DNA of 64,000 nt. Source: an uncultured Fidelibacterota bacterium. Lineage in GTDB: Bacteria; Fidelibacterota; Marinisomatia; Marinisomatales; UBA1611. Each line of letters starts with the position of its first letter. Within the stretch, counting starts at the first letter, position 1. The stretch spans positions 5,601 to 69,600 of the forward strand of contig CACKSF010000001.1 in NCBI GenBank assembly GCA_902602795.1, given 5' to 3'. Positions 44,837 to 61,646 of the stretch are shown here, piece by piece. The notes under the pieces are model-generated. The model was given only the letters and a program-made list of their open reading frames with translations, was not told the origin of the DNA and made no database searches. Made by a program: the position numbers and the translations under genes.

Positions 44837-44839
44837 TGG

Positions 44840-45191: not shown

Positions 45192-45196
45192 TTATT

Positions 45197-45521: not shown

Positions 45522-45872
45522 TAAGATGGGTATTTAAAAATCTTAAAAGATGTATTATATATTTTTAATTAAAATGAAATTTTAACCTTTATACATATAC
45601 CCCTCCCATTATAAACCAAAACAAAGTCCATACGCTCAAAGAATGCGTTTATAGTAAGTTAAATCTGATATTTATTCTCAACTTCCCCGACCCTCTCTTC
45701 TACCTTAAAATAAAATAATATCATTTTTTTTTCTTCATCTGTGAGTTGCAAATGATATAGTGTTTAGGTTTATATTTACTAGCCCAGTCTAACAATATCA
45801 GGTTAGAAAGAAGATGGAACAAGAGATGATTAATCGCACTCGAATAGGGTGTGAATAAAAAAGGCTATAAAG

Positions 45873-46115: not shown

Positions 46116-46345
46116 TGGACTATCAACATTTTTTTGAGAATTTAGTGGGCGTTAAAAAAATCAAATGGTCAGGCAAACAAGGCACTGGATGCTGTCTTTT
46201 GCCTGATCACGATGATAGAAATCCGTCATTCTCATTCAACATTGAGACAGGTCAAAACTTCTGTCATTCTTGTGGTTGGAAAGGCAACGCATACACACTT
46301 GCCAAAGAGCTAAATATGGACAACCCTTGCCATATACTCAAATAA
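46115..46345 (+). CDS. CHC2 zinc-finger module of a DnaG-type primase
   Basis: CLLPDHDDRNPSFSFNIETGQNFCHSCGWKGNAYTL = CxxxH...CxxC zf-CHC2. Confidence 0.7.
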   Translation: MDYQHFFENLVGVKKIKWSGKQGTGCCLLPDHDDRNPSFSFNIETGQNFCHSCGWKGNAYTLAKELNMDNPCHILK

Positions 46346-46418
46346 TTGCAAATCTATCAAGCACAAGCCTAATAACACTATTAAAAGCCATTCTAGAGAC
46401 ATAGATGAGGTAGGAATC

Positions 46419-47012
46419 ATGAAGATGTATGAAGAACTAAAAGAAAGGTACGGAAACAGGATAAAACTCGGAGATAATTACAAGGATAAATACGTCGGAA
46501 AAAGTGATAAAGATGAGGCTGTTTTCATTTATCCAAAAGGCATCAAGATTCATAAGAAGTACTGGATTAAAGAAGCATCAATAGACACTTCTAATCAAAT
46601 CTTTATGATGGATGAATTGTTAGGTTTTGATAATTCTAAGCCACTCTACTTATTTGAAGGTGAAAAGGATGCTATAGCCTCAAAATTACAAGGAGTATCA
46701 TTCTTTTGCGGTGCTACTTCTATCCCAAAAAATATAGATGCTTTGTATGAGTTTGATGAAGTCGTACTCATATACGATAATGATGAAGCAGGTGTAAATG
46801 GTGCTAAAAAGGTAGCTGAACGGATTAAATCAGAATCACCAACAACCAAAGTACTAATTGCTCAATGGGATTCATCACTTCCAAAAGGATATGATGTTTA
46901 TGATGATGGTAAAAAGACTGGATTCGCCAAGGTAGATGAAGCCATTGCAAATACAATTATATATGATTTAAAAATACCAACAGAATTAGAAGGATTTACA
47001 ATTATGACATGA
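46419..47012 (+). CDS. Toprim-domain primase module
   Basis: LYLFEGEKDAIA (catalytic Glu) and VLIYDNDEAGVNGAKK (DxD). Ends at a TGA that is in frame with the following P-loop segment. Confidence 0.7.
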   Translation: MKMYEELKERYGNRIKLGDNYKDKYVGKSDKDEAVFIYPKGIKIHKKYWIKEASIDTSNQIFMMDELLGFDNSKPLYLFEGEKDAIASKLQGVSFFCGATSIPKNIDALYEFDEVVLIYDNDEAGVNGAKKVAERIKSESPTTKVLIAQWDSSLPKGYDVYDDGKKTGFAKVDEAIANTIIYDLKIPTELEGFTIMT

Positions 47013-47974
47013 AAAAAAGCAAGTAATACCGTTCCTAAACCAACAGAATGGATAATAGAAAATGTATTGCCTAAGGGATTTAATTCGTGTCTTGCAGGAA
47101 CGACTGGAAGTAAGAAATCTATGTGGGCAATCCAATTAGGTTTGTCAGTTGCGAATGGGAAAAAGACTTTTGTGGAAACCGTATCAAAGGTGGAAGTAGA
47201 AAGGTGTTATTTATTGATACGGAGATAGGGCAAGATGAATTACTTCGCAGGTATCACAAAATAAAAAGCAAAATAGATTGGAAAGGTGATGACAATATCA
47301 TAATGATGTCTAAAGGCGGAACAACGATGGACATTTGGGAACAAACAGAAAAAATGATTCAGGCGTATAGACCCGAAGTAGTCATCATTGATAGTATGTA
47401 TAATGCCACAAGTGTTTCAGATTTCTCCAAATCAACTGGGATGAGCAAGGTAACAGATGCTCTTGCTACTCTTAAAGATAAATACGGAGTTACTATTTTA
47501 ATTATTGCTCATTTCAATAAAGGTAATGATGAACAGGTAACTCATATAGATAGGATACAAGGTTCTGCAGTTTTCAAGAACTCTATTGAATTTCAAATAT
47601 GTATGATACAGACTAACATTGATGATTTCAATATCTTCCAAGTACAAAAGACTAGAGGAGTTCCTTTTGACAGATCTTACATTGGTCTTAAGTGGGATGA
47701 TTTTTGGTTTACTACAAAAGGTATCATTGAAGATATATCTGATTACCTTGTGACTGAACATAAGAAAAAAAAGTGGACTTCTGTATTGGAAGATTTGCCT
47801 GACAGGTTTGATACAAAGGATTGGCTGAATGTTTTTAATAGCAAGTTTGAGATGTCAGAAAGAACTGGAAAAGTTTGGCTTAAAGAGGTTAGTAGAACCC
47901 AAATGGTAGATAAGATTTCTCACGGAGTTTATGAGAAGAAACTTAAACTAATTGAAGAGAATGAAATTGATTAA
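47013..47974 (+). pseudogene. RepA/DnaB-like P-loop helicase (AAA_25-like), frameshifted
   Basis: Walker A segment ..CLAGTTGSKKSMWAIQLGLSVANGKK lies in the Toprim frame (47013-~47165). The remainder (VLFIDTEIGQDELLRRY.., VVIIDSMY Walker B, IIAHFNKG) lies in the frame of ORF 47123-47974. The shift maps to the gggAAAAAg run near 47158-47163. Confidence 0.65.
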
Positions 47975-48277
47975 TTGGTGGAGAGGTGTACTTCACTATT
48001 GCACTTTCTCTCTATTTATGATTGAAAGTGAAGATAGTGAAGATAATGAAGTATAGTTCTCTACTAATTAAACAGGAGATTAATAAGATATGCTGATAAA
48101 TAGGATAGAAACAGGCGGTGATGACTAAAGGCAGAGTGGACAACCGAGATGTTTGTTGGGGGTCTAAGGAGGAAAACCACTCTACCTCATTATCAAGTCT
48201 TCTATACTGCAAGACCAAGCATCTTTTAATATTAGGCATTTTAGAGCATCCTAACATTGACACCCATCACAAGGACT

Positions 48278-48472
48278 TTATATTGATTGGGAAGAGAAGA
48301 ATTTTAGTATCAGAACAAGTGGGTCAATTTTTCCAGTCATAATCATGTATACAAAAATAGAAATAGCTATGAGGATGATAAACATGCCTAAACATCCTAT
48401 GGCGAATAGTTTACTGATTTGGTTAATGGAGTATCTAACGAACTCGAAAAATATGGAAAGCCATTTAGACAT
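48278..48472 (-). CDS. small membrane protein
   Basis: 64 aa with a hydrophobic core LFAIGCLGMFIILIAISIFVYMIM. Confidence 0.4.
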   Translation of the reverse strand: MSKWLSIFFEFVRYSINQISKLFAIGCLGMFIILIAISIFVYMIMTGKIDPLVLILKFFSSQSI

Positions 48473-48495
48473 AGGATGCCTGGATGATTAATTAC

Positions 48496-48639
48496 TTATA
48501 CATCGTATGCAAAACCAAGACCACATAAGGCTACAATAATTGCATATCTATAGCTACCGCTATCTATTGATCTTTGCAGAGTCATTCCAAATAGGATTGC
48601 AAACATGAGTATACCCATCAATCTCCATCTTGGCAACAT
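48496..48639 (-). CDS. possible 47-aa membrane peptide
   Basis: MLPRWRLMGILMFAILFGMTLQRSIDSGSYRYAIIVALCGLGFAYDV. Fills the gap between co-directional small TM genes; below the ORF-track cutoff. Confidence 0.3.
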   Translation of the reverse strand: MLPRWRLMGILMFAILFGMTLQRSIDSGSYRYAIIVALCGLGFAYDV

Positions 48640-48669
48640 CCTTCTTTTTTTTAACCAATCAATCATTAA

Positions 48670-49017
48670 TTATTGGTCTCTAAAAAGTTTAAACCCAACA
48701 ATACTAAATGTGATATTGAATATTGCTATAATACCAAGCCAATTTGTTTTTTCACCTTTTTTTGTTGGTTTACTGAAAAGTAATGGAAGCCCAACTTTGG
48801 TTCGTTCGATACCTTTTTCTTTTTTTAATTCTCCAGCCCATTTGTACCAATCTTTATCATTATCAAAATCAACATTTGACTTTTCATATTCCCAATCTAT
48901 TTCACTGGTATCCAACCATTTATGTACTGGACTAAATCCTAGTCCAAAAACAGTTATCAGGAAGACCAAAACAGAACCAGTCCCAACCATAACTAATAAT
49001 TTTTGTTTGTCATTCAT
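48670..49017 (-). CDS. two-TM membrane protein
   Basis: 115 aa with N- and C-terminal TM helices around a charged loop. Confidence 0.5.
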   Translation of the reverse strand: MNDKQKLLVMVGTGSVLVFLITVFGLGFSPVHKWLDTSEIDWEYEKSNVDFDNDKDWYKWAGELKKEKGIERTKVGLPLLFSKPTKKGEKTNWLGIIAIFNITFSIVGFKLFRDQ

Positions 49018-49025
49018 AATTAAAA

Positions 49026-49325
49026 TTAATAATTATCTTTCCTTCTTGTCAGAGTACCTATCCAGGCATGAAAGTTTTTCTTGTTCGCATCAGAATAATA
49101 ATAATAAACAGCTACCAATAATATGCTTAATGGTATCGTAAAGACTAAAAACATTAGAAGAAGTACATTCGCAATGTCTTGTTCAGATTTATTTTTAAGT
49201 AATTTTGGAATCCCTGCTTCGCCTCTTTCATATTTTCCCCAATCTTTTAAAAATTGTTTTCTTTTTACCCAACCAAGGCATAGGACTATAATAAATAAAA
49301 TGATGGTAAATGGTGATAATTCCAT
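49026..49325 (-). CDS. two-TM membrane protein
   Basis: 99 aa with TM helices FTIILFIIVLCLGWV and VLLLMFLVFTIPLSILLVAVYYYY. Confidence 0.5.
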   Translation of the reverse strand: MELSPFTIILFIIVLCLGWVKRKQFLKDWGKYERGEAGIPKLLKNKSEQDIANVLLLMFLVFTIPLSILLVAVYYYYSDANKKNFHAWIGTLTRRKDNY

Positions 49326-49385
49326 TAACTAATTTAAGATATTTAACAATAGGTTCTTGTAACACATATACTACAGGAGTAATTT

Positions 49386-49622
49386 ATGAGTATGAGTGAA
49401 GTTAATAAAGGTGGAAGACCTAGAGAAGAACCCACCAATGTACGCAGTGTTAGATTGCCCAACAGGATTTGGAAATTGGTACAAAAGGCATCGAAAGGCA
49501 GTCGTTCAGTCAATGAATATATTCAAACAATAATTGAGAATGATTTGATTAAACGGAAAATGCTAAAGAAGTCAGAACGGAAAAAACTATCCTCTAAAAC
49601 CTCTACGAAAAGGAGTCAGTAA
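49386..49622 (+). CDS. ribbon-helix-helix (CopG/Arc-like) DNA-binding protein
   Basis: GGRPREEPTNVRSVRLPNRIWKLVQKAS....SVNEYIQTIIENDL fits a beta-alpha-alpha RHH pattern. SD AGGAG is present; TAATG overlap with the integrase. Confidence 0.5.
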   Translation: MSMSEVNKGGRPREEPTNVRSVRLPNRIWKLVQKASKGSRSVNEYIQTIIENDLIKRKMLKKSERKKLSSKTSTKRSQ

Positions 49623-50734
49623 TGGCGATACTTAAAACTCGTAGAGATAAATGGTATGAAAGAGTGATATGGTTTGTAAATGGTAAGTTTATCGAAAAAC
49701 AAATACCATTAAGAACCTCATCAAAAGTAACTGCAAGAGAGAGAATTGCAGAGGTCAAAAAGGTAGAAGGAGATATTAAACAAGGGATGGAGTTTTCATT
49801 CCCTTGGCTATCCAATTTTGCAAAGACCAAAGTAAAACGGTTCACCATTAAAGAAGCAGTTGATCAATGGTTATTAAAACGGAAGGGTAAAGTTGCGAAT
49901 TCTACATTGGATTTGAATGAGGATGGTTTGAATTATTTTCTCAAGTTCATGGGCAATGCAAATCCTATCGAAACAATCTCAACAAGTAATGTGGAACAAT
50001 TCATTGATTGGTTGGAAGGAAGGGGTTTAAGCAAGGCAAGTATTAATATACATTTACGAACTATAAAATCGATGTTTAGGTATTATCTAAATGTTGGTAG
50101 ACTGACTTCAGTTCCTCATATCCAACAATTGAGGATTCCAAAAACAGAACCTATCTACATCACAGATAATGAGTTTCAATCCATAATGGAATTAGATTGG
50201 TTAGATGATTTTTACAAGCTTGTATTCCTTTTATATCGTGAGACTGGAATGAGACTAAACGAGCATATGATTTCAGTACTTGATGGAGATTGGGTTGACA
50301 TACCTAATACATCCAAAGGTAAGGTAGGAAGAAACACCCAATTAGATAGACCAATGCAATCCATCTTCAATGAATTGAAAGAATGGTTAAGCAGTGGTTA
50401 TGGTTCAAGGCTTAAGACACCTGATGACCATATCAGTAAGATGTTTAAGAAAGCCTTAAGAAGTATAGGTGCAGATGAAAGTAAACATTTCCATTCACTT
50501 CGGCATACATTTGCAGTAAGAAGATTGATACAAGGAACATAAATATATGATTTAAAATTGTTGATGGGTCATAGTTCAGTCACAACTACTGAAGTCTATT
50601 CAAATATGAATCTTAAACGAGTGTCTCAAGGTTTTCCAACCATAGTCACAAGATATGTAAATATGACTAAAATTGGAAATTTGGACACAAAAACCTTGGA
50701 CACAATAGCATTACCAATGACCTATGTGACGTAA
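49622..50734 (+). pseudogene. tyrosine recombinase/integrase with an in-frame TAA before the catalytic Tyr region
   Basis: YRETGMRLNE (Arg I) and HSLRHTFAVRRLIQGT (HxxR), then TAA at 50540-50542. The same frame continues IYDLKLLMGHSSVTTTEVYSNM (His, Tyr nucleophile) to the stop at 50732-50734. Confidence 0.8.
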
Positions 50735-50763
50735 TAAATTAGGTTACAGCTTCCAAGCGGATA

Positions 50764-50808
50764 CTTTGGGAGCAGGAGATCGGGAGTTCAAATCTTTCTA
50801 CCCCGACA
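50764..50808 (+). repeat. attR core (orphan 3' half of tRNA-Pro)
   Basis: CTTTGGGAGCAGGAGATCGGGAGTTCAAATCTTTCTACCCCGACA (one C>T difference). No 5' tRNA half precedes it. Confidence 0.8.
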
Positions 50809-50835
50809 ATGAGGCAACACACTTGTCTCTTCAGA

Positions 50836-50870
50836 AAAGCCTCGTCAAACGATGAGGCTTCTTTGTTTTC
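50836..50870 (+). terminator. terminator after the orphan tRNA-Pro 3' half
   Basis: AAAAGCCTCGTC-AAAC-GATGAGGCTTCTTTGTTTT. Confidence 0.55.
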
Positions 50871-50910
50871 ATACTTAGTAATAAATGTTCATTAATACCC
50901 GTTTGGGGGA

Positions 50911-50992
50911 CACACCCTATGGGCGTATGGCATTTTAGGAATGAACGTAAATCCTCATTCCACGCAAAGTATTTGAAAAGAAAGTCCTTGGA
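50911..50992 (+). repeat. repeat C1 (long form)
   Basis: CACACCCTATGGGCGTATGGCATTTTAGGAATGAACGTAAATCCTCATTCCACGCAAAGTATTTGAAAAGAAAGTCCTTGG; shares its core with C2-C4. Confidence 0.7.
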
Positions 50993-51035
50993 GTAAGTTT
51001 AAATATTCTAATAATCTATTAACAAGGCCTTTACT

Positions 51036-51701
51036 TTATGGTGCTTCCCAAATAATTGGATATATAGATTCACCAAAGATACCTACGCTACGAGAATAGA
51101 AGATTTTTAAATCTTTACTAGAAAAAGGATTCTTTTGAGATTCTCCGTCAAGTGTATTGCCAAAATAATTGGAGCCATACTGTTCAATCGACTTTTTGTG
51201 CCTAATTACTCTTATTGGGTGCACATCTGCTTTTAAGGCTGCTATTATGTCGGAATCTGCATCTCCGTAATATAAATCAAGCTTTAAAGAAGTCATTTTA
51301 CGGTGTTTAGTAGTATGTTTGATGCCATCTATTTTTTCATTTGGACAGAAAAATAAATTTTTATTTTTCTCTATTTTCAAATCAAGTTTTTTAGATAAAA
51401 AGCGTGCTAAAGTTTCTCCATTTTCTCCTGATCTTGCTGTTATAAAAAAAAGGTTATGTCCATTTTCTGAAAAATAGTTTATTAGCTCTACCGTTGGTTC
51501 TATAAAAACTGATAATTTTTCATCTTGTTCATTAACCCAGCTATAATCAATTGGGTTTTTTTTATTTTGAGGTATATTTTGAAAAACATCTCTAGAAAAT
51601 AATATTGTATCATCAATATCAAATCCTACATTTAATATGCCTGAACTTGCTAAAGAGAGTGATTTTATAAATGTTATTATAATTAATAGTTTTGAATACA
51701 T
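51036..51701 (-). CDS. class B acid phosphatase (AphA-like, HAD superfamily)
   Basis: Signal peptide; GFDIDDTILFS (DDDD motif I), FFITARS, YYGDADSDI, matching the AphA layout. Confidence 0.75.
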   Translation of the reverse strand: MYSKLLIIITFIKSLSLASSGILNVGFDIDDTILFSRDVFQNIPQNKKNPIDYSWVNEQDEKLSVFIEPTVELINYFSENGHNLFFITARSGENGETLARFLSKKLDLKIEKNKNLFFCPNEKIDGIKHTTKHRKMTSLKLDLYYGDADSDIIAALKADVHPIRVIRHKKSIEQYGSNYFGNTLDGESQKNPFSSKDLKIFYSRSVGIFGESIYPIIWEAP

Positions 51702-51808
51702 ATAGTTAAAAGGTTTATTTAAGGGTTAGTAATTACTTAAAAAGACACAAAATTATCTTTAACAAATTAAAATAAAAGCTAATCTTTCTACTCAAAAATT
51801 ATTAGTAC

Positions 51809-52027
51809 CTAATAAAGATTATTTTCTCTTTCATAATCGTTAAGCATTGCTAGAAGGTTCATAATAAAACTTTCATATTGCTTTAGGCGTATAGATAATT
51901 TGTCGCCTGTATCTTTTTTTAATTTATAATCCTTTTTAAGTGATTTATTTTCTTGCAAAATGTCAGCTTCAAAAATTGGTTTGTTGAGAATATTATTAAC
52001 AGAGTCATTGAAGTTGTCTTTATCCAA
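51809..52027 (-). CDS. small coiled-coil protein, unknown function
   Basis: 72-aa ORF, charged/helical; no motif. Confidence 0.35.
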   Translation of the reverse strand: MDKDNFNDSVNNILNKPIFEADILQENKSLKKDYKLKKDTGDKLSIRLKQYESFIMNLLAMLNDYERENNLY

Positions 52028-52103
52028 TGATTACTTTATTGTATGGATATGTGATTGGTAACATAGTTAAATCCTGTTGGCCAGAAGAGGAATAGGCATC
52101 ATC

Positions 52104-52152
52104 AAGCCCCACATTCGTGCGGTTTTTTGTTTGTGGGATGATTAGTAGATTA
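52104..52152 (+). repeat. junction repeat A3
   Basis: AAGCCCCACATTCGTGCGGTTTTTTGTTTGTGGGATGATTAGTAGATTA. Confidence 0.8.
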
Positions 52153-52235
52153 ATTTATTTACTTATTGCTAATTTACTTGAACTTAATTATTATTCATAT
52201 TTACTTAACTATTATTAATTAATCACCATTTACAA

Positions 52236-52760
52236 ATGCGCAAATATATATTCTTACTTTTAATTACTGGAACCGTTTGGGCACAAACGGGTTTAGATAA
52301 ATTAGTTTTTAAAAGGGGTGCTTATTATCAAGGAAAATATGCAAACACCGATAATAAAATTACATACTTATTTGAACCACAGGCAGTTTTGGATGCAAAA
52401 AAAGATGCAAAAAAATGGATAGCTTACCCACTATTAGTAGGACTTACATTCGCCTCATCAATATATGGTACTATGACGATTGCCAGAGAAGAGCCTTGGG
52501 AAAGCCTCCCAGCAATGATAGGAATTAGCACTGCTAGTTTAGCTTTACCATACATTAGTTTAAATAATTCTGATAAAAACCAAATTGAAAAACTAAGTAA
52601 GCAAGTTTATGATATTGAATTATATAAAGAAACTTTTTCGGAAGAATTCATAAAAAATAATATCATAGGTTTAGGTCTGTTAGGTTTGGCTGCTGCTGGA
52701 GGATATATTTATTTTATTTCAACTTTTACTTTGAATGATGACTTTTATTTCGGACCGTAG
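52236..52760 (+). CDS. signal-peptide protein with C-terminal multi-TM region
   Basis: MRKYIFLLLITGTVWAQ signal and three hydrophobic segments. Same architecture class as 43364-43858. Confidence 0.55.
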   Translation: MRKYIFLLLITGTVWAQTGLDKLVFKRGAYYQGKYANTDNKITYLFEPQAVLDAKKDAKKWIAYPLLVGLTFASSIYGTMTIAREEPWESLPAMIGISTASLALPYISLNNSDKNQIEKLSKQVYDIELYKETFSEEFIKNNIIGLGLLGLAAAGGYIYFISTFTLNDDFYFGP

Positions 52761-52775
52761 TGCAGTTATTTGGTC

Positions 52776-52824
52776 AGCCCTATATTTGTGCGGCTTTTTG
52801 TTTGTTGGGTGATGGGTAGATTTG
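52776..52824 (+). repeat. junction repeat A4
   Basis: CAGCCCTATATTTGTGCGGCTTTTTGTTTGTTGGGTGATGGGTAGATTTG. Confidence 0.8.
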
Positions 52825-52975
52825 GATATGCTTTTCTACTATACAAAATTAATATATTATCTATGGGCTTTGGTATTACCCTTATTATATTTTATTTTTC
52901 AAATAATGGATTAGGTTCCTATTATTTCTATCTTAATCAATAATATATATAAAAAAACAATAGTATAAATGACAC

Positions 52976-53698
52976 ATGATTAAGTTGTTTAAATACATTT
53001 CTATATCAATAGTTACATTTTATCTTATTTATAGTTCCAATGTATTCGCTGGCAAAATCCTTAAATACGACTTAAAAAAGCAAGAGAGTTTACATGATAA
53101 TTCTGTTTTGTTTTTCATGCATGGATGGGGATCAAGTAAAAAAAAATGGTATAAAGAAATAATTTCTGAATTTGGAGATGATTTTACTATTGTGATTTTG
53201 CAAGCACCCTATAGGATGGGGTGGTTTCCTGGGAAATTTAGTTGGTATGAATGGCAAATAGTTGATGGCGATACTATATTTAATCAGGAACAGATTAATT
53301 TTAGTTCCCAAAGCGTTTTACAAACAATAGATCACATTATTAGAAAACAAAATTTGGATATTAAAAACGTTTTTATTGGTGGTCAAAGCCAAGGAGCTAT
53401 AATAGCATGCAAATTAGCTTCTGAGCATCCAGAATCTATGCGAGGATTTTTTGTGCATAATGGAAGGCTTCCAGTAGTATTCAATCCTGTTAACAGTGAT
53501 AGTTTTTCAAAATTACATGGACTTATATTAAATGGGAAATATGATAAGGTACTGCCTCCTAAATATGCTAAAAGCATAGTTAATAAATTTAAAAATCTTG
53601 GTGTGAATATAGATTCAATATCACCAGAGATTGGACATGGGATGCCAAAGGAGTCTTGGAGAATGATTCAAGAATGGATTAACTCAATTATAAGGTAA
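52976..53698 (+). CDS. secreted alpha/beta hydrolase (phospholipase/carboxylesterase family)
   Basis: FMHGWGSS, nucleophile elbow GGQSQGA, C-terminal IGHGMP (His). Confidence 0.7.
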   Translation: MIKLFKYISISIVTFYLIYSSNVFAGKILKYDLKKQESLHDNSVLFFMHGWGSSKKKWYKEIISEFGDDFTIVILQAPYRMGWFPGKFSWYEWQIVDGDTIFNQEQINFSSQSVLQTIDHIIRKQNLDIKNVFIGGQSQGAIIACKLASEHPESMRGFFVHNGRLPVVFNPVNSDSFSKLHGLILNGKYDKVLPPKYAKSIVNKFKNLGVNIDSISPEIGHGMPKESWRMIQEWINSIIR

Positions 53699-53778
53699 TT
53701 AATTTTAATGGTGAGTTTGTTGATACCAAGAAGATGCTATTGTTTAAATAAATATGTAAGTAAGTCTACAGGTTAGTT

Positions 53779-53839
53779 TAAGCAGGTACGTTCAGTATAA
53801 TGTCCTTCTGTCCTTTTAGTACTTGAAGGGACAAAAGAA
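53779..53839 (+). repeat. repeat B2
   Basis: TAAGCAGGTACGTTCAGTATAATGTCCTTCTGTCCTTTTAGTACTTGAAGGGACAAAAGAA. Confidence 0.75.
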
Positions 53840-53846
53840 CAACTTT

Positions 53847-53897
53847 CTACACACATATTCGTTGGGTTTTTTGTTTGTGGAATGATGGGTATATTTT
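53847..53897 (+). repeat. junction repeat A5 (eroded hairpin)
   Basis: CTACACACATATTCGTTGGGTTTTTTGTTTGTGGAATGATGGGTATATTTTG. Confidence 0.75.
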
Positions 53898-53900
53898 GAT

Positions 53901-54134
53901 ATGAGAGGAGAATTAAAATTCTTAGCAGGGTTTGCTATTGGCATAGCAATAGGCGCAGCAACTGATAATTTAGGTATAGGAATTGGTATCGGTATTGCTT
54001 TTGGTTCTGCATTATCCCAAACTAAAAACGAACAGAAGAGTATTAAATCAGATTCAAGTGAAGAGGATATATTAATTGATTTCAACCACATGAATAGAAG
54101 AAAAAGAAAAGCCAAGAATGATGAAAAAGAGTAG
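53901..54134 (+). CDS. small glycine-zipper membrane protein
   Basis: FLAGFAIGIAIGAATDNLGIGIGIGIAFGSAL followed by a charged tail. The ATG lies 3 nt after the A5 box. Confidence 0.55.
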   Translation: MRGELKFLAGFAIGIAIGAATDNLGIGIGIGIAFGSALSQTKNEQKSIKSDSSEEDILIDFNHMNRRKRKAKNDEKE

Positions 54135-54180
54135 AGCCCCATATTCGTGGAGTTTTTTTTTGTGAGATGATGGTTAAATC
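54134..54180 (+). repeat. junction repeat A6
   Basis: AGAGCCCCATATTCGTGGAGTTTTTTTTTGTGAGATGATGGTTAAATC. Confidence 0.75.
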
Positions 54181-54410
54181 TATTGATGCCTTGAATTAAA
54201 AATTCATAATTGTTTCCAGAGCTATTAAACTTATTATCTTCAAAAATTTCTAAAACCTTAATTTATTATTTAACAATATTTAATTTATAATTAATTTAAA
54301 TCAATGTTAACTTTATCTTTATTAATAATTAACAGCGAATTTATCAATATTTTATGTTCATTATTTTTAGGTATAATGGATCATAAATATTTTACCTTGT
54401 TATATATATT

Positions 54411-56057
54411 TTGAGTAATCAAAGATACAATTCCCTTGATGGTATGCGAGGCATATTGATGCTTTTGGGTGTTTACTTTCATTTAGCAATCAATTATATT
54501 GGAGAACCGCCAGGTGGGCATCCATTCTTTGGATTGTTCATGTACTTATGTCATTACTTTAGGATGCATGCTTTTTTCCTTGTGTCTGGTTTTTTTGGAG
54601 CTCTTCTCGTAAATCGAAGGGGAGCAAAAGAAATGATAAAAAACCGAATTAATAGAGTTCTTTATCCTTTATTAGCGCTTTCATATCCTATTTGGCTTTT
54701 CGTTGTATTCAGTGGTGACTTTTCGCTAAATCGGCAACAAGGTAACAACATAACTAACTCAATTATTTCAGGATTGTGGGTTTTTGTTGAAACCCCTACT
54801 AATTTGATTCCTGAGACTACTATGCACTTATGGTTTTTGAGTTTGTTATTCGGGATGTCTTTGCTAGGATATTTTTTCAGTAAGTATTCATTCGTTAGTG
54901 TGGATATTTTTAAAATCTTCGTTAAGAATATTTTTGAAAAACCCTGGTTGGGAACATTTTCATTTTGTTTTTTTTATGGATTATTACTTGCCATATTAGA
55001 TATTCAAGAAGCGCAAGGTGATGAAGGAGTAGGCTACTCTAGTTGGGTTTGGTTCATTAAACCTAGTGCTATCAAAACTTTTATTGCATTTGGATTTTTC
55101 TATCTAGTAGGATGGAAAATGTATTATTGCAGAGAACAATTAAATAGCTTAAGCGTTAAAAAATATTTGAAAATCTTTGCTGTACTCTTCCTTCTCATTT
55201 TTCCAGGATTTACAACATTGCTGTTTAAAATAGGAGGTTATAGTCAGTTCGAAATATTTAATGAGTTTTGGAGCCAAGAAAAAAGGGAAGTTACGTTTAA
55301 TGTGGACATGTCTCCTTTTGATTTTACACAGTTTGCGGATAGTTCTAAATTTAAAGGAGTTTATTTAAATGGTAGTTTTAATGGTTGGTGTGGAGAATGT
55401 GATAATAAAATGGATGACGTGGATGGTGATAATATTTTTTCTAAAACTATTTTACTCAATCCTGGATCTCATAACTTTGTATTTTCGGTAAATGGTTGGG
55501 ATGGTTTTCACAAAGGTGATCGAAGAGGAATAGGAGAAAAGTGGGTGTCTCCGGGTGATAAAGGGTTTGAATGTGATAAAGACCCTAATTCTGATAATGA
55601 TAATTCATATGAAATTAGATTAATAAATGAGGACTTAATCTTAGAACCAATTTGTTGGAAAGAATGTACTGATTGTGATGGAAATTATATTTCTAAAATT
55701 GATGTAAATAGACCTTGGCCTCCGTTTGAAAGGATTGTAATTGAAAAAGGTTTTATTTTCGCAATGAACTTTTTAGTTCCCTCTACAGTTATGTTGATTA
55801 TGACTCTGTTTATTCGATTTTGTGGTCAACCCTCAAAAAGGCTTCGTTACATTAGCGACTCATCGTATTGGGTTTATGTAATCCATTTACCTTTAGTCTT
55901 TTTTATTCCTGCCTTTTTTCATCAAAGTGAAATGAACTTATTAATTAAGTTTATAATTAATTCTGTAATAGTTACAGCAGTATGTTATTTATCTTATCAC
56001 TTTTTAGTAAGGAAAACATTTATTGGCAAGTTTCTTAATGGAAGAAAATTTGATTAG
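54411..56057 (+). CDS. acyltransferase-3 family membrane protein with an inserted carbohydrate-binding-like beta domain
   Basis: N-terminus YNSLDGMRGILMLLGVYFH (acyltransferase_3), ~8 TM helices, a soluble insertion EVTFNVDMS...GVYLNGSFNGWCGEC..DGDNIFSKTILLNPGSHNFVFSVNGWDG, then more TM helices. TTG start. Confidence 0.65.
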   Translation: MSNQRYNSLDGMRGILMLLGVYFHLAINYIGEPPGGHPFFGLFMYLCHYFRMHAFFLVSGFFGALLVNRRGAKEMIKNRINRVLYPLLALSYPIWLFVVFSGDFSLNRQQGNNITNSIISGLWVFVETPTNLIPETTMHLWFLSLLFGMSLLGYFFSKYSFVSVDIFKIFVKNIFEKPWLGTFSFCFFYGLLLAILDIQEAQGDEGVGYSSWVWFIKPSAIKTFIAFGFFYLVGWKMYYCREQLNSLSVKKYLKIFAVLFLLIFPGFTTLLFKIGGYSQFEIFNEFWSQEKREVTFNVDMSPFDFTQFADSSKFKGVYLNGSFNGWCGECDNKMDDVDGDNIFSKTILLNPGSHNFVFSVNGWDGFHKGDRRGIGEKWVSPGDKGFECDKDPNSDNDNSYEIRLINEDLILEPICWKECTDCDGNYISKIDVNRPWPPFERIVIEKGFIFAMNFLVPSTVMLIMTLFIRFCGQPSKRLRYISDSSYWVYVIHLPLVFFIPAFFHQSEMNLLIKFIINSVIVTAVCYLSYHFLVRKTFIGKFLNGRKFD

Positions 56058-56153
56058 ATGTAAAATGTATATTTTACAAATAAATCTAAAATTAATAACG
56101 ATAGATGATGTTCAATTAGTCTGATTTCTAAACTGCCATCATCTTATATTTTA

Positions 56154-56198
56154 TTAATCCTCATTCCCTACAAAGTATTTGAAAAGAAAATCCAAAGT
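56154..56198 (+). repeat. repeat C2
   Basis: TTAATCCTCATTCCCTACAAAGTATTTGAAAAGAAAATCCAAAG. Confidence 0.7.
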
Positions 56199-56206
56199 TT
56201 TTAATT

Positions 56207-56228
56207 CTTGTGGCGATGGTTAGATTTA
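56207..56228 (+). repeat. junction repeat A, right half only
   Basis: TTGTGGCGATGGTTAGATTTAA directly after C2. Confidence 0.6.
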
Positions 56229-56274
56229 AATATGAAAAACACAAAGTTAGTAATAGGAGTAGTAGAATTTTTAT

Positions 56275-56320
56275 AAGCCCCACATTCGTGGGGTTTTTTG
56301 GGAGGATGATGGTTAAATTA
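56275..56320 (+). repeat. junction repeat A7
   Basis: AAGCCCCACATTCGTGGGGTTTTTTGGGAGGATGATGGTTAAATTA. Confidence 0.8.
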
Positions 56321-56336
56321 AAATTATCTGGTCATT

Positions 56337-56610
56337 ATGAAAAAACTTATCATTAATTATATTTTCATTACTTTTTGCTTGTAACGGTTCTAAACTTGTT
56401 AATGTATTAAATTTTGTTGAAAGAGGGGGATTGACCTATTACTATAAATATTATTTTTTTAAAGAACACGATGTATAGATCTCCAAAATTTCTTTAGCAG
56501 AAAAGCTATTAAGTATTGGCTAACGGGTGAAGTTCAGCTGGAAGGAATATTTAAAAATGGGAACACCGAGGGGACATCGAAATATTGTTCTCTGAGGAGC
56601 GAAATAAGGG
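56337..56610 (+). pseudogene. decayed YwqK/MORN-variant-repeat lipoprotein gene
   Basis: MKKLIINYIF.. signal, then a frame change to ..LLFACNGSKLVNVLNFVERGGLTYYYK.., stops, then ..LTGEVQLEGIFKNGNTEGTSKY in another frame. Confidence 0.4.
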
Positions 56611-56632
56611 TTCGAATCTCTTCCACTCCGCA
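56606..56632 (+). other. orphan tRNA-like 3' fragment (T-arm + acceptor 3' strand)
   Basis: AAGGG-TTCGAAT-CTCTT-CCACTCC-G; no matching 5' acceptor or anticodon arm upstream. Confidence 0.5.
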
Positions 56633-56845
56633 CCCTATTTTATAGGTTTCCGCTCTAAAAACTGATCATCATTACATTTTTGATTCTCATTTACTTTATG
56701 AGAATCTATTTTAATCGGGAAAATTGCGACCCTCCTTCTTTTTCGACATTTTCGAGGACTTAGATATAAACAGAAAAACTAATCCAAATTCATAAGTCAG
56801 ATAATGCACATCAAGGAGTTTTTTTATTTTTGAGAAAAAGAAAAT

Positions 56846-57379
56846 CTATTTTATAAAAGAAGGATTATTTTCATCAGATTTTATCCAATCATTTACCCAT
56901 GTTGGTAATTTAGCCTTTGGGATATTAAAATTAAAAATCTTTGAGGCTTCTACAGATTTAATCAATTTACCATTTTTAACGACCCCTGTCCTTGCTAATA
57001 AAGTTGAAGTAATTTGATTTTTAACAATGAATTTATGTAGATAATATGTCCACTTATCATCTACATAAATGATTTTTGTTGTCATTTTAAATTTTTCACC
57101 AAATGGAATTCTGTAACGATACTTAATTGAAGCCCCAGCGACGGTAAAATAGATTTTATTTTTTTTTGCTGTACTAAAAAAACCCGTTCTAAAACCGTGA
57201 TTAAATCTTCCTATATCAGCTAGAGTTTGGTAGCGACCATTATTTATTTCCAAATATGGATCTATGTCTGAAATACCACATCTCATTGAAAGAGAAGTCT
57301 CATCTTCAATTTTTACTTTTTTTGTAAACCTTGATGCAAAATAAGCTTGTAATAGAATGAAAAATGGATAATTAAACAT
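56846..57379 (-). CDS. hot-dog-fold acyl-CoA thioesterase-like protein
   Basis: ..RCGISDIDPYLEINNGRYQTLADIGRFNHGFRTG..FTVAGASIKYRYRIPFGEKF resembles the 4HBT_2 thioesterase family. I prefer the Met start at 57379 to 57463. Confidence 0.55.
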   Translation of the reverse strand: MFNYPFFILLQAYFASRFTKKVKIEDETSLSMRCGISDIDPYLEINNGRYQTLADIGRFNHGFRTGFFSTAKKNKIYFTVAGASIKYRYRIPFGEKFKMTTKIIYVDDKWTYYLHKFIVKNQITSTLLARTGVVKNGKLIKSVEASKIFNFNIPKAKLPTWVNDWIKSDENNPSFIK

Positions 57380-57564
57380 TTTTTTGTTTTTGAAAATTAA
57401 TTTAAAATTTAAAGTATTTATTGATATTGGTATTAATATTACAAAAACACAAAATACTTTCATTAAATATTAAAGAAAATAAATAGTATTAATAAAATAA
57501 AAATTAAAAAGTCAATTTAGGGGAAACTAGGTATTTTATTTAAATAGAAATATCTTTGTGTATC

Positions 57565-57614
57565 AAGCCCCATATTCGTGTAGTTTTTTATTTGTAGGTT
57601 GATGGGTAAATTTT
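57565..57614 (+). repeat. junction repeat A8
   Basis: AAGCCCCATATTCGTGTAGTTTTTTATTTGTAGGTTGATGGGTAAATTTT. Confidence 0.75.
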
Positions 57615-57626
57615 AAAGTGCTTTTT

Positions 57627-59021
57627 ATGCAAAAAAACATGCCATTATTTATATTTTTTGTATTTTCCAATTATTTAATGGCTGAATGTTCAGATCTTGA
57701 TTCATTACAATGCGTCCAGTATCCTGAGTATTGTAGTTGGGATCAAAATCTTCATCAGTGTCGGGACGTTACTGTTGATACATTGGGTTTTAATTACGAT
57801 TGCATTCCATTTAATGACTTTAGCTCAATTCCTATAAATACTACTGATTACGCTGAAATGTGTATCGATTATGTTGGATTACCTCCCAGTGTTGATTGTG
57901 GAGAAGGTGTACCTATTCCTGTTTATGTTGATGGCATATCTATGAATGTTGATCAACCACAAGGAGAATGCGATCATCCAGATTTCAAGGGTGGTTGTTT
58001 CGTTGGCTCTAGAGTTGGAAGGGTGCAAGGTATAGATATTGATGGTGAGCATATGCCTGAAGTCATTTGGGTATATTTTTGTCGTTCTGCTGGTCAGGAA
58101 TATTTCAATGAATATGGCATTGTTTCTGTACAAATGATAGGATATAATACAGAAACAGGAGCAACTTGTTTTTTTGAGTCACCAGACGCTGTTGGTGATA
58201 TGATTCAGTCAGAATATTTAGAATTTGATGAAAATGGTTTATTAGATGGAGAATTGCCTGGTTATGGTAATCCTTGGTTTGATGAGGCATGGCATTCCCC
58301 GGCTGTTTCTCAAGCAAATTGTATATCTTGTCATACAAGCGACCCTTTTGTTCATGACCCTTGGATTGACCAAGCTAAATTACCAAGTGACCCTACACAA
58401 ACAGTGGTTCCTAAACTGGAATCTTCAGATTTACTATATTTTGCGGTTGGAGGATATGGAAGCCAATGGGATAACAGAAGCATACATGTTGAGGGCAATC
58501 AATGTTTGAGTTGTCACAGATCCAATATGATACTTGCTTATGAAAACTTTGAAGCTTTAGGTCATGTAATGATAAATGATTTTATGCCACCACATCAACC
58601 AGGGGCCCTTTCTGATGACTATAACGAACTTATTCAATGCTGGATTAATGGACCAGAAAATACAGATGGATGCGATTGGATAATTCCTCCGGGAGGAGAT
58701 TGTGAAACTCAGGTGCTATCTATCCAAAACGATCATATCAGAAATAATTTCTTTCTCCATCAAAATTATCCAAACCCATTTAATCCTTTTACTATTTTAC
58801 GATACGACTTACTAGAAGATGGGTTAGTAAATATCACTGTTTACGATATACTTGGCAATGTAATTAATCAGTTGGTAAATGAGGTTCAACATTCTGGCTA
58901 TAAGTCCATTCAATGGAATGCAACCAATAATCAAGGTCAGCCTGTATCTGCAGGAGTCTATTTATATACTATAGAAGCAGGAGATTTTAGACAGACCAAG
59001 AAGATGATATTGTTAAAATAG
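57627..59021 (+). CDS. secreted di-haem c-type cytochrome-like protein with T9SS sorting domain
   Basis: Signal MQKNMPLFIFFVFSNYLMA; two CxxCH motifs (NCISCHTSDPF, QCLSCHRSN). C-terminus NYPNPFNPFTILRYDL...GVYLYTIEAGDFRQTKKMILLK. Confidence 0.7.
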   Translation: MQKNMPLFIFFVFSNYLMAECSDLDSLQCVQYPEYCSWDQNLHQCRDVTVDTLGFNYDCIPFNDFSSIPINTTDYAEMCIDYVGLPPSVDCGEGVPIPVYVDGISMNVDQPQGECDHPDFKGGCFVGSRVGRVQGIDIDGEHMPEVIWVYFCRSAGQEYFNEYGIVSVQMIGYNTETGATCFFESPDAVGDMIQSEYLEFDENGLLDGELPGYGNPWFDEAWHSPAVSQANCISCHTSDPFVHDPWIDQAKLPSDPTQTVVPKLESSDLLYFAVGGYGSQWDNRSIHVEGNQCLSCHRSNMILAYENFEALGHVMINDFMPPHQPGALSDDYNELIQCWINGPENTDGCDWIIPPGGDCETQVLSIQNDHIRNNFFLHQNYPNPFNPFTILRYDLLEDGLVNITVYDILGNVINQLVNEVQHSGYKSIQWNATNNQGQPVSAGVYLYTIEAGDFRQTKKMILLK

Positions 59022-59034
59022 AAATATTTTAAAC

Positions 59035-59140
59035 GCAAAACTCTATATTAGTGTTTTTTTGTTTGTGTTAATCTTAATTCCTCAAAAAGTATTTAAAAGA
59101 AAGTCCAAGGTTTGTTGTTTGTGGTATGATTTGTATATTT
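59035..59140 (+). repeat. junction repeat A9 split by repeat C3
   Basis: GCAAAACTCTATATTAGTGTTTTTTTGTTTGTG | TTAATCTTAATTCCTCAAAAAGTATTTAAAAGAAAGTCCAAGGTTTGTT | GTTTGTGGTATGATTTGTATATTT. GTTTGTG is present on both sides of C3 (59068-59116). Confidence 0.75.
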
Positions 59141-59150
59141 TTGTTGAAAA

Positions 59151-59636
59151 ATGTTTAATAAACTTAAGGTGAAGGAATTATCTATGCAAAAAATAAGTAT
59201 AATTATACTAATCTCAACTTTTCTTTTTGGAAGTGATATTAATAAAATAAAAGAAACAATTCATTCCAATTGGGATAAAGTAGCACAAAAAAATGTTACT
59301 GGTTTAATTCATCCTGATGGTAGTTGGATGGCAAATTCTGAAGGAGGATTTTGGAATTTTCAGACAGTGCAAGATAATAAAACATTGATAGAGGATTCGC
59401 CAAATACTTTAAATCTTAAAGCACACCATATCCATGTAGATTTTTATGGATCAAAAAAAGATTTGGCATATGCTGTGTATTATTTATCAGGAAGTATCGA
59501 AAGAGAGGGAAAAGTTATGATTTCAAATTATCGAACTCGTGCATCCAATTTATTAAAAAAAGAGAAGGGTAAATGGCTTACTGTCGGTGCTCATTATAGC
59601 CCTATGCACTCTGGATCTGGTGTAAAATTCGATTAA
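59151..59636 (+). CDS. secreted NTF2/SnoaL-like (DUF4440-like) protein
   Basis: Signal peptide (the true start may be MQKIS at 59184). Alpha+beta cone-like pattern ending ..KEKGKWLTVGAHYSP. Weak family call. Confidence 0.45.
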   Translation: MFNKLKVKELSMQKISIIILISTFLFGSDINKIKETIHSNWDKVAQKNVTGLIHPDGSWMANSEGGFWNFQTVQDNKTLIEDSPNTLNLKAHHIHVDFYGSKKDLAYAVYYLSGSIEREGKVMISNYRTRASNLLKKEKGKWLTVGAHYSPMHSGSGVKFD

Positions 59637-59660
59637 AATATTAAAAAGTAAACACAAAAT

Positions 59661-59712
59661 AAAAACCCCGCATTCGCGGGGTTTTTTGTTAGTGGAATGA
59701 TTGTTAGATTTG
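59661..59712 (+). repeat. junction repeat A10 (perfect hairpin with compensatory changes)
   Basis: AAAAACCCCGCATTCGCGGGGTTTTTTGTTAGTGGAATGATTGTTAGATTTG. Confidence 0.8.
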
Positions 59713-59715
59713 ATA

Positions 59716-60990
59716 ATGAATGAGTCGATAAATATTTTTACTCAAAGATTCAACGATATAAAAATTGAAAACGAGTATTTAGATTTTAAATGGCCGCGAA
59801 TTTGGCCTTATCTTAAAGCTTTTCTATTTTTAACTTTGCTAATTAAAGCATTCGTTATGTTTGAAGACATAAAATTACTTGGATTACAAACACCTTATAT
59901 AATCTATCACATCTTTGATCTTATAATATTTGTTGTTTTCATGTTTATAATATCCAACAATAATAAAAAGAAATACCACCAGATATATATGAGCTTATCT
60001 TGGATAGGATTTATGAATATTGGTACCTGGACATATTACTTTTCACCATTTGATTTTCCTCCAGGAGAAGGAGTAGTAATCACATGCATAATTCTTCCAC
60101 TAACTATTTACCCTTTTCATTTAGTGAACGGGGTTATTTCTGCGTTATTTACATCAATTCCAATTATGGTAATGTTAATTCAAAAGGGAATGATGACCAA
60201 TGATCAAATTACATACCTATTTATTTTGCCTTTAATTTTTATTTTATTTGCCAAAATCAATTTCGAGAATAGATCGAGGAAAGATTTTATTAAAAGCTTG
60301 AAGCTTGATTCGAATAGAAAATTAATGAGACAAACACTAAAACGTTATTTTGGTGAAAATCTAACCAAAAAAATTCTGCACAATCAGGGAGATCTTAAAG
60401 GAGACAACATCTGGATTTCAATATCGTTCACTGATATTTCATCATATTCTACCATTATTGAACACATGTCCCCAGAAATGGTTGTAAGGTTTTTAAATGA
60501 ATATTTCTCTGCTATGCATGACGTTATAGATAAATATAAAGGTCAAATTGTAAACTATATTGGTGATTCGGTTATGGTAGTTTTTGGAGCTCCAAAAAAG
60601 GTAGAGGATCATGAAATAATGTCATTGAAATGTGCTATTGAAATGAGAGAAAAATTAGAAAAATTGAACAGGATTTGGGATGAAACAGAGTTTTCAAGAT
60701 TTTGGAAAAATCATGGTATTGAAAAAATAACTGCGCGCACTGGAATCCATACAGGTAGTGTAATTGCTGGAAATATTGGAAGCGATAGGATGTTACAGTA
60801 TAGTACTATTGGGGATACGGTCAATGTTGCTTCAAGATTAGAGCAGGCCAATAAAGATTTTGAATCTGATATTGCTTTTAGCCATGAAATTTACAATGCC
60901 TTAAACCAAAAATTACATTCAAAAGCTATTTTCCTTGGAGAAATAAAATTAAAAGGGAGAGAAAATGCTACAAAAGTATATTCAGTTTAG
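59716..60990 (+). CDS. membrane-anchored class III adenylate/guanylate cyclase
   Basis: About 6 N-terminal TM helices. Cyclase domain ISISFTDISSYS (metal Asp), NYIGDSVMVVFGAP, RTGIHTGSVIAGNIG, YSTIGDTVNVASRLE. The ATG lies 3 nt after the A10 box; the ORF-track TTG at 59701 lies inside the repeat. Confidence 0.85.
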   Translation: MNESINIFTQRFNDIKIENEYLDFKWPRIWPYLKAFLFLTLLIKAFVMFEDIKLLGLQTPYIIYHIFDLIIFVVFMFIISNNNKKKYHQIYMSLSWIGFMNIGTWTYYFSPFDFPPGEGVVITCIILPLTIYPFHLVNGVISALFTSIPIMVMLIQKGMMTNDQITYLFILPLIFILFAKINFENRSRKDFIKSLKLDSNRKLMRQTLKRYFGENLTKKILHNQGDLKGDNIWISISFTDISSYSTIIEHMSPEMVVRFLNEYFSAMHDVIDKYKGQIVNYIGDSVMVVFGAPKKVEDHEIMSLKCAIEMREKLEKLNRIWDETEFSRFWKNHGIEKITARTGIHTGSVIAGNIGSDRMLQYSTIGDTVNVASRLEQANKDFESDIAFSHEIYNALNQKLHSKAIFLGEIKLKGRENATKVYSV

Positions 60991-61353
60991 ATTATCTAAA
61001 AAAATATAAGAGATTTTTACAAGAATAATTATATAGGAGATGGATTTTTTTTTATAGGACCTCCCATAAATCATTTAATGAGATTAACAACATTATTGTT
61101 CATGGTATTATTATCTTAGTGCTAGACTAATAAAGTAAATCACTTTGAAGTAACAACATAAATTGAAAGTCTATTTTTGACCATGTTAAATCTTGTAGTG
61201 ATGGAGGTATTGAGTTGATCACCGATAATGTATGGGGTAATTAATCAAAAGTTTAAAAGTTAAAACATATTAATTATGACTAAATCCTACAGATCTAAAA
61301 TTTTAATTTTACACCTGTGCCCTATTTTAGGGAAGCATAAAGATTTATAGACC

Positions 61354-61408
61354 AAATACTTTCCATTTATTTGTGAAGTTTTTTGTTTATGAGATGATTG
61401 GTAAGTTT
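61354..61408 (+). repeat. junction repeat A11 (degenerate)
   Basis: AAATACTTTCCATTTATTTGTGAAGTTTTTTGTTTATGAGATGATTGGTAAGTTTT. Confidence 0.6.
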
Positions 61409-61646
61409 TACTTTTAGTTACAATTTCTCTTTCCCGATAGTAATTTTTCCAATGATCGAAACCTTCAGAGCCTATGTTAGAAAGCATATTAAATACTTTT
61501 TTTATATTGCCCTCATATTAGCTATAAAGGAATGGGCAGATTTGTTTAGAGGTGATGAGTTAGATTTATTGAGGTTGATAGGAAACAGTGCGTTAGCATT
61601 TTATTTTTGGGGTTTATCAGTAGGAAAATTTGAATTTAGAGAATAA
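61398..61646 (+). CDS. small two-TM membrane protein
   Basis: The true start is probably the internal Met (MIETFRAYV..). TM helices YFFYIALILAI and ALAFYFWGLSV. Confidence 0.4.
   Translation: MVSFTFSYNFSFPIVIFPMIETFRAYVRKHIKYFFYIALILAIKEWADLFRGDELDLLRLIGNSALAFYFWGLSVGKFEFRE

Follow-up and report, generated by a model that had tools for sequence, protein, structure and literature searches.

A widespread, undescribed protein family with two putative haem c sites and, in Marinimicrobia, a type IX secretion sorting domain

Proteins secreted by a type IX secretion system (T9SS) are known as hydrolases, adhesins and non-covalent haem binders, and those of the type A class, such as gingipains, ChiA and HBP35, have a Sec signal and an immunoglobulin (Ig)-like C-terminal domain (CTD) of about 80 amino acids with the pattern NPFNP…GxY…K…K. 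Covalently bound haem c is known from other exported proteins. The di-haem peroxidase, MauG and RoxA enzymes (PF03150) possess two covalent c-type haems in one exported polypeptide, one a His/Met electron-transfer haem and the other catalytic, and RoxA is secreted outside the cell; MtrC and OmcA (PF22113/TIGR03507) are c-type haem proteins addressed to the outside of the Gram-negative cell. The gene considered here encodes a protein with two CxxCH motifs and a type A CTD, and is found at positions 57627 to 59021 of a 64,000-nucleotide stretch (the window) of contig CACKSF010000001.1 from an uncultured bacterium of the Marinimicrobia (SAR406), which rank with the ocean's most abundant uncultured heterotrophs. 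Like the known type A cargo, this protein combines a Sec signal with an Ig-like CTD; unlike it, the passenger domain belongs to a new family, and cargo with covalent haem c was not found in the literature.

The gene lies on the forward strand, starts with ATG and encodes 464 amino acids followed by a stop codon. An alternative in-frame GTG start is located upstream at 57618, and a 100% identical protein (P0001) is encoded on a public 73-kb NCBI contig. By inspection, residues 1-19 (57627-57683; MQKNMPLFIFFVFSNYLMA) form a Sec-type signal peptide with a K-containing n-region, a hydrophobic h-region and a cleavage site between LMA and E, before ECSD. Homologues align with similarly hydrophobic N-termini, and a hydrophobic N-terminal segment is present in 153 of 178 near-full-length family members. 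The signal is followed by a module with four cysteines (residues 20-50, 57684-57776; ECSDLDSLQCVQYPEYCSWDQNLHQCRDV), found in the alignment in Marinimicrobia members only, by the family core of about 310 amino acids (residues 55-366, 57789-58724), comprising an alpha/beta part and then two segments with the haem motifs, by a disordered linker (residues 367-380, 58725-58766; pLDDT below 50 at residues 367-386) and by the type A CTD (residues 381-464, 58767-59018), all on the forward strand. The protein contains 18 cysteines, and the 14 outside the CxxCH motifs are even in number, which fits disulfides in an exported protein. The Cys-rich exported protein with two CxxCH motifs named in the preliminary description is thus borne out.

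The first motif is CISCH (C232-I-S-C235-H236, 58320-58334, forward strand), which had been placed exactly, and the second is CLSCH (C293-L-S-C296-H297, followed by R298; 58503-58517, forward strand), which had been placed one base too late. These are the only CxxC sequences in the protein, and His follows each of them. In 200,000 shuffles of the protein's composition, the probability of at least one CxxCH was 0.018 and that of at least two was 1.25e-4; no other open reading frame (ORF) of at least 80 amino acids in the window contains one. Conservation was assessed in 276 relatives, reaching down to about 25% identity and aligned to the hidden Markov model of the family, with each column counted over the sequences that cover it. 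C232, C235 and H236 are each kept in 210 of 211 relatives, and in the second motif C293 is kept in 208, C296 in 209, H297 in all and R298 in 196 of 210. The other cysteines of the core, C124, C152, C181, C338 and C349, are kept in just 76-90% of relatives. Because the His of each motif is as invariant as its cysteines, whereas the remaining cysteines are not, covalent haem is favoured over disulfide or zinc sites, and this pattern, which is typical of haem c attachment and not of disulfides or zinc ribbons, favours both CxxCH motifs as attachment sites. Two further conserved positions are candidate ligands. M320-P321-P322 (58584-58592, forward strand), which lies 23 residues after the second motif and is kept in 171-172 of 174 relatives, would by analogy with the Met-Pro motifs of class I cytochromes c provide M320 as the Met axial ligand of haem 2. 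His243, within FVHDPW (58353-58355, forward strand), lies seven residues after the first motif, is kept in 193 of 211 relatives and is a candidate sixth haem ligand, or else a distal or catalytic residue. Y271 is also nearly invariant (201 of 203).

The C-terminal domain is a genuine T9SS sorting domain, as had been recognised. Residues 381-461 match TIGR04183 at 37.3 bits (cut-off 23) and PF18962 at 28.0 bits (cut-off 27), both above the curated cut-offs, and the domain has the sequence …NYPNPFNPFT…GVYLYTIEAGDFRQTKKMILLK. When the full-length AlphaFold model was searched with Foldseek, the CTD was matched by the Ig-like domains of PorU, PorZ and FlgD, and no matches besides such CTD-type Ig domains were returned. 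At least 1990 proteins match the CTD at E <= 0.001, and the 120 listed share 70-89% identity with it; these matches are short fragments only and of no use for cargo architecture. The CTD is retained in orthologues at five other Marinimicrobia loci (L004, L005, L006, L007 and L084). At the DNA level it is 79% identical over 280 nucleotides to the CTD of the ORF at 43851-44768 of the window, and this identity suggests that unrelated cargo genes exchange their CTD modules or that the modules evolve in concert. The product of that ORF has 305 amino acids, 18 cysteines and, apart from its T9SS CTD, no passenger domain that could be recognised. In total, the window contains four T9SS cargo genes, the di-haem-motif gene included; the others with CTDs are found at 13339-15141 and 19310-21370, one without a recognised passenger and one with BP74_N and leucine-rich repeats, the latter adjoining a TonB-dependent receptor of 1378 amino acids. 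These four genes, with the at least 1990 proteins that match the CTD, speak indirectly for T9SS machinery in the organism.

The core was modelled by AlphaFold2 from a 76-sequence alignment at mean pLDDT 93 and pTM 0.91. In the model, residues from about 55 to 215 form an antiparallel sheet, mainly of four strands, together with short helices and a helix at the N-terminus; beyond about residue 215 there are two irregular segments, each with one CxxCH in a helical turn, and three helices follow the second motif. Several results weigh against a di-haem cytochrome delivered by the T9SS, and the first of these concern this core. In Foldseek the best of 350,542 PDB chains reached E = 0.39 (TM about 0.1) and the best BFVD entry E = 0.11, neither being significant, and all Pfam and NCBIfam matches to cytochromes were sub-threshold and confined to stretches of 12-30 residues that surround a motif. 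By these searches the core has a confidently predicted fold without a solved relative. The 48 ORFs of the window that were scanned include no ccm or ccs genes for cytochrome c maturation and no T9SS core genes. The WWD haem-handling motif is likewise absent from the window and from the loci of relatives that were searched. According to one report, Marinimicrobia encode cytochrome c oxidases (PMC6143742), which bears on maturation only indirectly. Of the di-haem, c-type cytochrome-like character first proposed, the conservation of the motifs in the manner of haem c sites stands; a known cytochrome fold or family was not recognised by profile or structure search, the matches being limited to the motifs.

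No Pfam, NCBIfam or PDB family matches the core above threshold. In scans of the protein and of 76 close and 75 distant relatives against Pfam and NCBIfam, nothing was found besides the CTD, dockerin and a small number of appended domains that are unrelated. Searches of PDB sequences with the protein and with full, distant and C-terminal haem-segment profiles gave matches at the level of the motif only (E >= 0.027). These weak PDB and Pfam matches at the motifs correspond to the haem c sites of NapB, octahaem nitrite reductase, NrfH and c3. NapB (PF03892; PDB 1OGY chain B) is the best PDB sequence match, at E = 0.027 with the C-terminal profile, and has N-x-C-x-x-C-H-R in common around the second motif; the match covers 15-19 residues, lies below any family threshold and does not extend to the remainder of the protein, which is unrelated. 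Kinship of the C-terminal segment (MPP…SDD…W) with class I cytochrome c551 was also considered, using hhalign against a c551 sequence; only 17 columns of the CxxCH region were aligned, at a probability of 36%, and membership was dropped since the alignment covered that region alone.

The PF03150 enzymes are among the nearest described counterparts in outline. With them the protein shares two c-type haems (here predicted) in one exported polypeptide and the order of a first motif with a nearby conserved His, a second motif and then Met-Pro-Pro. It differs from them in an extra alpha/beta part of about 160 amino acids and in the T9SS CTD, dockerin or lipoprotein address found in its family. No match to PF03150 (CCP_MauG) was found in Pfam at E <= 1, among PDB sequences or by Foldseek. 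The protein is at best a functional parallel of these enzymes, not a member of their family, and no homology is claimed.

The family itself is large. A word-indexed search returned 116 homologues, and when a profile was run against 1.84 billion cluster representatives (50%-cluster level), the number of matching clusters was 908 at E <= 1e-3, falling to 535 at E <= 1e-10 and to 96 at E <= 1e-30. A relative is encoded at 139 loci among GTDB species representatives, all of them metagenome-assembled genomes (MAGs) from seawater and sponge. The hosts are Candidatus Neomarinimicrobiota (Marinisomatales), Acidobacteriota (Vicinamibacterales, Thermoanaerobaculia, Holophagales and 'Ca. Multivorans'), Gemmatimonadota, Planctomycetota and bins labelled Gamma- or Deltaproteobacteria. 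The nearest genomes, MED648 and LRMED-178, share about 86% DNA identity over the gene, which places the window in a bacterium of the Marinisomatales. The niche-specific trait suggested in the preliminary description is therefore replaced by one member of a large family that occurs in at least six phyla, mostly without a T9SS tail. The family is thus new and widespread, its fold is apparently new as well, and its members are probable di-haem c-type proteins, in Marinimicrobia coupled to the T9SS, although c-type cytochromes and T9SS cargo are each of known kinds.

Members of the family differ in their additional modules. The T9SS CTD is found in 12 of 76 relatives, which are the closest ones, their identity to the window protein being about 60% or higher, and a type I dockerin is found in nine; the remainder have no recognised C-terminal module. 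Distant members are fused to a ricin-type lectin and fn3, or to ankyrin repeats, and many members outside Marinimicrobia show lipobox-like signals at the N-terminus by inspection. From the CTD, dockerin, lipobox and lectin variants, the same passenger appears to have several kinds of anchor, each extracytoplasmic. Type I dockerin repeats replace the CTD in sister Marinimicrobia proteins, and near these are found a GH16 protein with dockerin and another dockerin protein (P0025, P0037, P0040, P0050, P0055 and others; L085:374-1768; L087:10543-11424). Such sequences hint that Marinimicrobia may build a cohesin-dockerin assembly at the surface, with the di-haem-motif protein as a part of it.

A second family with CxxCH and a T9SS CTD was found in the same lineage. 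In 193 kb of Marinimicrobia DNA, a sample biased towards the di-haem-motif family, 18 ORFs bear CTDs, and CxxCH occurs only in that family and in L005:636-2288 (P0397) from the MAG LRMED-178, where the P0397 gene is located two genes upstream of the orthologue of the window gene. P0397 has a signal peptide, an N-terminal segment with CxxCH, a Cu2_monoox_C-like domain (sub-threshold, 22.1 bits against a cut-off of 23) and a T9SS CTD. On reading, its N-terminus resembles a monohaem cytochrome c domain (CIICH … MPLG … WIIAGAP), and the same segment weakly matches the fatty-acid cis/trans isomerase PF06934 (CTI; E = 0.0017). This family comprises 1038 homologues from Marinimicrobia and KSB1, mostly with a CTD, and is annotated at source only as 'T9SS type A sorting domain-containing protein'. 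The motif is kept in 107 of 116 near-full-length members, 68 of which have no other cysteine. The P0397 family was not found in the window. It agrees with the di-haem-motif protein in lineage, in the kind of CTD and in having a conserved CxxCH, and differs in having one motif rather than two and an unrelated passenger; hhalign of the two families aligned the motif alone. As this second family is unrelated, cargo with haem motifs seems to be recurrent in the lineage. The full-text literature yielded no report linking the T9SS to c-type, multihaem or CxxCH proteins. The view that a CxxCH protein is unusual as T9SS cargo is hence upheld with regard to what has been reported, and is weakened by the second family within the lineage.

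The proposed pathway begins with export of the unfolded precursor by Sec. In the periplasm, the cytochrome c maturation system of the host would attach one haem covalently to each CxxCH, and the 14 cysteines outside the motifs would form disulfides. The T9SS would then recognise the folded holo-protein by its type A CTD and carry it across the outer membrane, a step that is plausible since the T9SS carries folded cargo, and the protein would be anchored at the cell surface or released. The replacement of the CTD by dockerin, ricin/fn3 or ankyrin modules in relatives fits a surface or extracellular location. As a whole, an exported di-haem c-type haemoprotein delivered by the T9SS is considered reasonably probable from its sequence, and an abundant ocean lineage thus probably places haem redox proteins on the cell surface.

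Within this pathway, the protein may act as a stand-alone redox enzyme. Haem 2, with His297 and Met320 of the MPP motif as ligands, would serve as the electron relay, and haem 1, with His236 and either His243 or an open sixth position, would face the conserved alpha/beta part of about 160 amino acids, which would bind the substrate. The chemistry would most likely be an oxidation, dependent on peroxide or O2, of a compound or polymer outside the cell. An enzyme is suggested by the large conserved non-haem part with the invariant polar residues Y75, R153, Q169 and E184, by the lack of a conserved partner gene, by the variety of targeting modules among relatives, and by the pairing of a His/Met-type relay haem with a second haem whose nearby His is less strictly conserved. 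That the case for it is drawn from architecture and context counts against it, and the enzyme is put forward tentatively, as somewhat less than probable. More doubtful is the extended proposal of a widespread marine family of di-haem extracellular enzymes with a new fold, of which the window protein would be the first to be recognised, brought to the surface as holo-cytochromes through the T9SS in Marinimicrobia and elsewhere with the help of dockerins, lipid anchors or lectins, and oxidising dissolved or particulate organic matter with peroxide or O2.

Should haem be bound, the range of T9SS cargo would widen from hydrolases and adhesins to covalently attached redox cofactors, and the translocon would accept folded holo-cytochromes. 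SAR406/Marinimicrobia and several sponge and pelagic phyla would then possess a surface redox activity that is missing from models of carbon, iron and peroxide cycling. Together with the second CxxCH and CTD family, the extended proposal would mean that the T9SS of abundant ocean bacteria routinely exports redox proteins loaded covalently with haem, a class of cargo and an extracellular redox capacity that have not been described. The domain of 310 amino acids, with its confident model, no structural relative and about 900 clusters, would also be a clean candidate for structural work and for finding new enzymes.

The predicted redox activity might instead be that of an electron-transfer shuttle, at the surface or in the periplasm, that exchanges respiratory electrons with extracellular compounds able to accept or donate them, among them Fe(III) complexes, Mn or humics. 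Two c-type motifs with an extracellular address are what such a shuttle would have, and the window protein and one relative show weak matches of the MtrC/OmcA type, all sub-threshold at 10-20 bits against cut-offs of 30 and 209. Unlike MtrC and OmcA, however, the protein has only two motifs, would take the T9SS rather than the type II route and occurs in pelagic heterotrophs, with relatives in water-column and sponge MAGs; no porin-cytochrome or other conduit genes are found nearby at any of more than 80 loci. The conserved non-haem part with its invariant polar residues would be unusual in a simple carrier, and the dockerin and lectin fusions suggest targeting to a substrate or scaffold. A shuttle is accordingly judged unlikely.

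A second alternative is that the CxxCH motifs bind no haem, their four cysteines instead making up a Cys4 zinc site or a pair of disulfides in a secreted protein without redox function, for example a binding module or hydrolase. It would explain why no cytochrome fold or family was recognised, it agrees with the 18 cysteines of an extracellular protein, where structural disulfides are common, and the core was modelled confidently without a cofactor; models of apo cytochromes, however, usually obtain high AlphaFold confidence as well. The motif histidines (H236, 210 of 211; H297, 210 of 210) are hard to reconcile with structural cysteines, which are lost in 10-24% of relatives, and both the MPP, which is invariant, and the nearly invariant H243 are in keeping with distal ligands. 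In the model the motifs lie in helical turns and not in zinc-knuckle hairpins. Sites of this kind are thus quite improbable, and haem c attachment is the preferred assignment.

The address of the haemoprotein could also be questioned, in that a di-haem protein might remain in the periplasm with a recently acquired or non-functional CTD. The CTD is missing from most relatives, many of these are lipoprotein-like and could face the periplasm, and the window ORFs scanned include no T9SS machinery. The CTD is nevertheless intact, lies at the extreme C-terminus, scores above the cut-off, is conserved in the five orthologues mentioned above and has almost the same sequence as the CTDs that unrelated cargo of this genome carries, and the dockerins of sister proteins are extracellular modules too. 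Retention in the periplasm is therefore considered very unlikely, and delivery to the surface by the T9SS is retained as the predicted route.

Finally, an integron-type cassette moved by site-specific recombination at attC-like sites, for which 11 same-strand copies of an element separating single genes at 43.2-61.4 kb, near a tyrosine recombinase gene and with gene order that differs in close relatives, could be cited, is hardly credible, as the element is a 7-bp GC hairpin with a T-run and an A/T-rich tail without R''/L''-L'/R' or GTTRRRY, and the recombinase is co-oriented with the genes and lies beside a duplicated tRNA-Pro 3' half. The integron-type array was rejected on an alignment of the 11 copies by eye. 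Same-strand single-gene units, a repeated element, a tyrosine recombinase and variable gene content are shared with integron arrays and tRNA-linked islands; the lack of attC features and the duplicated tRNA half beside the recombinase set the region apart from the former and fit an ordinary island. As to the mobile-looking array of cassettes in which the gene had been placed, 'mobile-looking' is fair, since gene order differs between close relatives, and an array of the integron type is not supported.

The intergenic element is 53 nucleotides long, and its copies start at 43238, 44785, 52102, 52773, 53846, 54131, 56273, 57563, 59090, 59661 and 61358, all on the same strand; they span 43238-61410, and none is found elsewhere in the window, the first 43 kb included. 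Each consists of a GC hairpin (AGCCCCACATTCGTGGGGT, 7 bp), a T-run and a conserved A/T-rich tail (TTTGTGGGATGATGGGTAnATTT). The hairpin shows compensatory changes between copies, from CCCCAC/GTGGGG to CCCCGC/GCGGGG, and the end of the element is frequently 3-15 nucleotides before a start codon. By its sequence the element resembles an intrinsic terminator coupled to a promoter of the Bacteroidetes style (TTTG … TAnnTTTG), and it could in addition be a substrate of recombination in the gene shuffling seen between relatives. The eighth copy (57563-57615, forward strand), with a decayed hairpin, a T-run and TTTGTAGGTTGATGGGTAAATT, ends 12 nucleotides before the ATG of the di-haem-motif gene and is the candidate promoter and 5' boundary of that gene; a degenerate ninth copy (59090-59142, forward strand) bounds it downstream.

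The island region (42323-50841) includes a tRNA-Pro(TGG) gene (42323-42398), whose 3' half and downstream sequence are repeated with 79% identity at 50757-50841. The repeat encloses genes for a tyrosine recombinase (49622-50542; 306 amino acids, with weak Phage_integrase and SAM-like matches), a Toprim protein (46419-47012) and an AAA_25 protein (47123-47974). The recombinase and the duplicated tRNA-Pro 3' half indicate an ordinary tRNA-integrated genomic island, and the di-haem-motif gene is located about 6.8 kb past its end. In MED648 this gene lies in a block that matches the island of the window, two genes upstream of the homologue of 43851-44768, and in LRMED-178 it directly follows sequence that matches window positions 50762-50987.

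Gene neighbourhoods at 83 loci show no neighbour that is conserved across phyla, and at the more than 80 loci examined no redox partner, porin-cytochrome or maturation gene is found beside the gene. In Marinimicrobia the neighbours are unrelated accessory genes, several of them for secreted hydrolases (GH16 with dockerin, PETase-like esterases and alpha/beta hydrolases). The sole recurrent neighbour found encodes a PEP-utilising enzyme of about 1000 amino acids (PPDK/PEP synthase-like), located on the same strand about 400 nucleotides downstream of the family gene. It is always so placed, but only in the clade of Thermoanaerobaculia, 'Ca. Multivorans' and Holophagales (L013-L056, about 33 loci), where it probably reflects inherited synteny and shared ancestry.

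Two other features of the region were noted. A SAM-I/IV riboswitch aptamer was identified at 42618-42741 of the window (49.5 bits, gathering score 41.1), just downstream of a tRNA-His/tRNA-Pro pair at the start of the island. At 54411-56057 an acyltransferase-3 membrane protein is split by a Cys-rich soluble insert of about 150 amino acids, an unusual architecture in which the insert weakly matches the glycogen-binding domain AMPK1_CBM.

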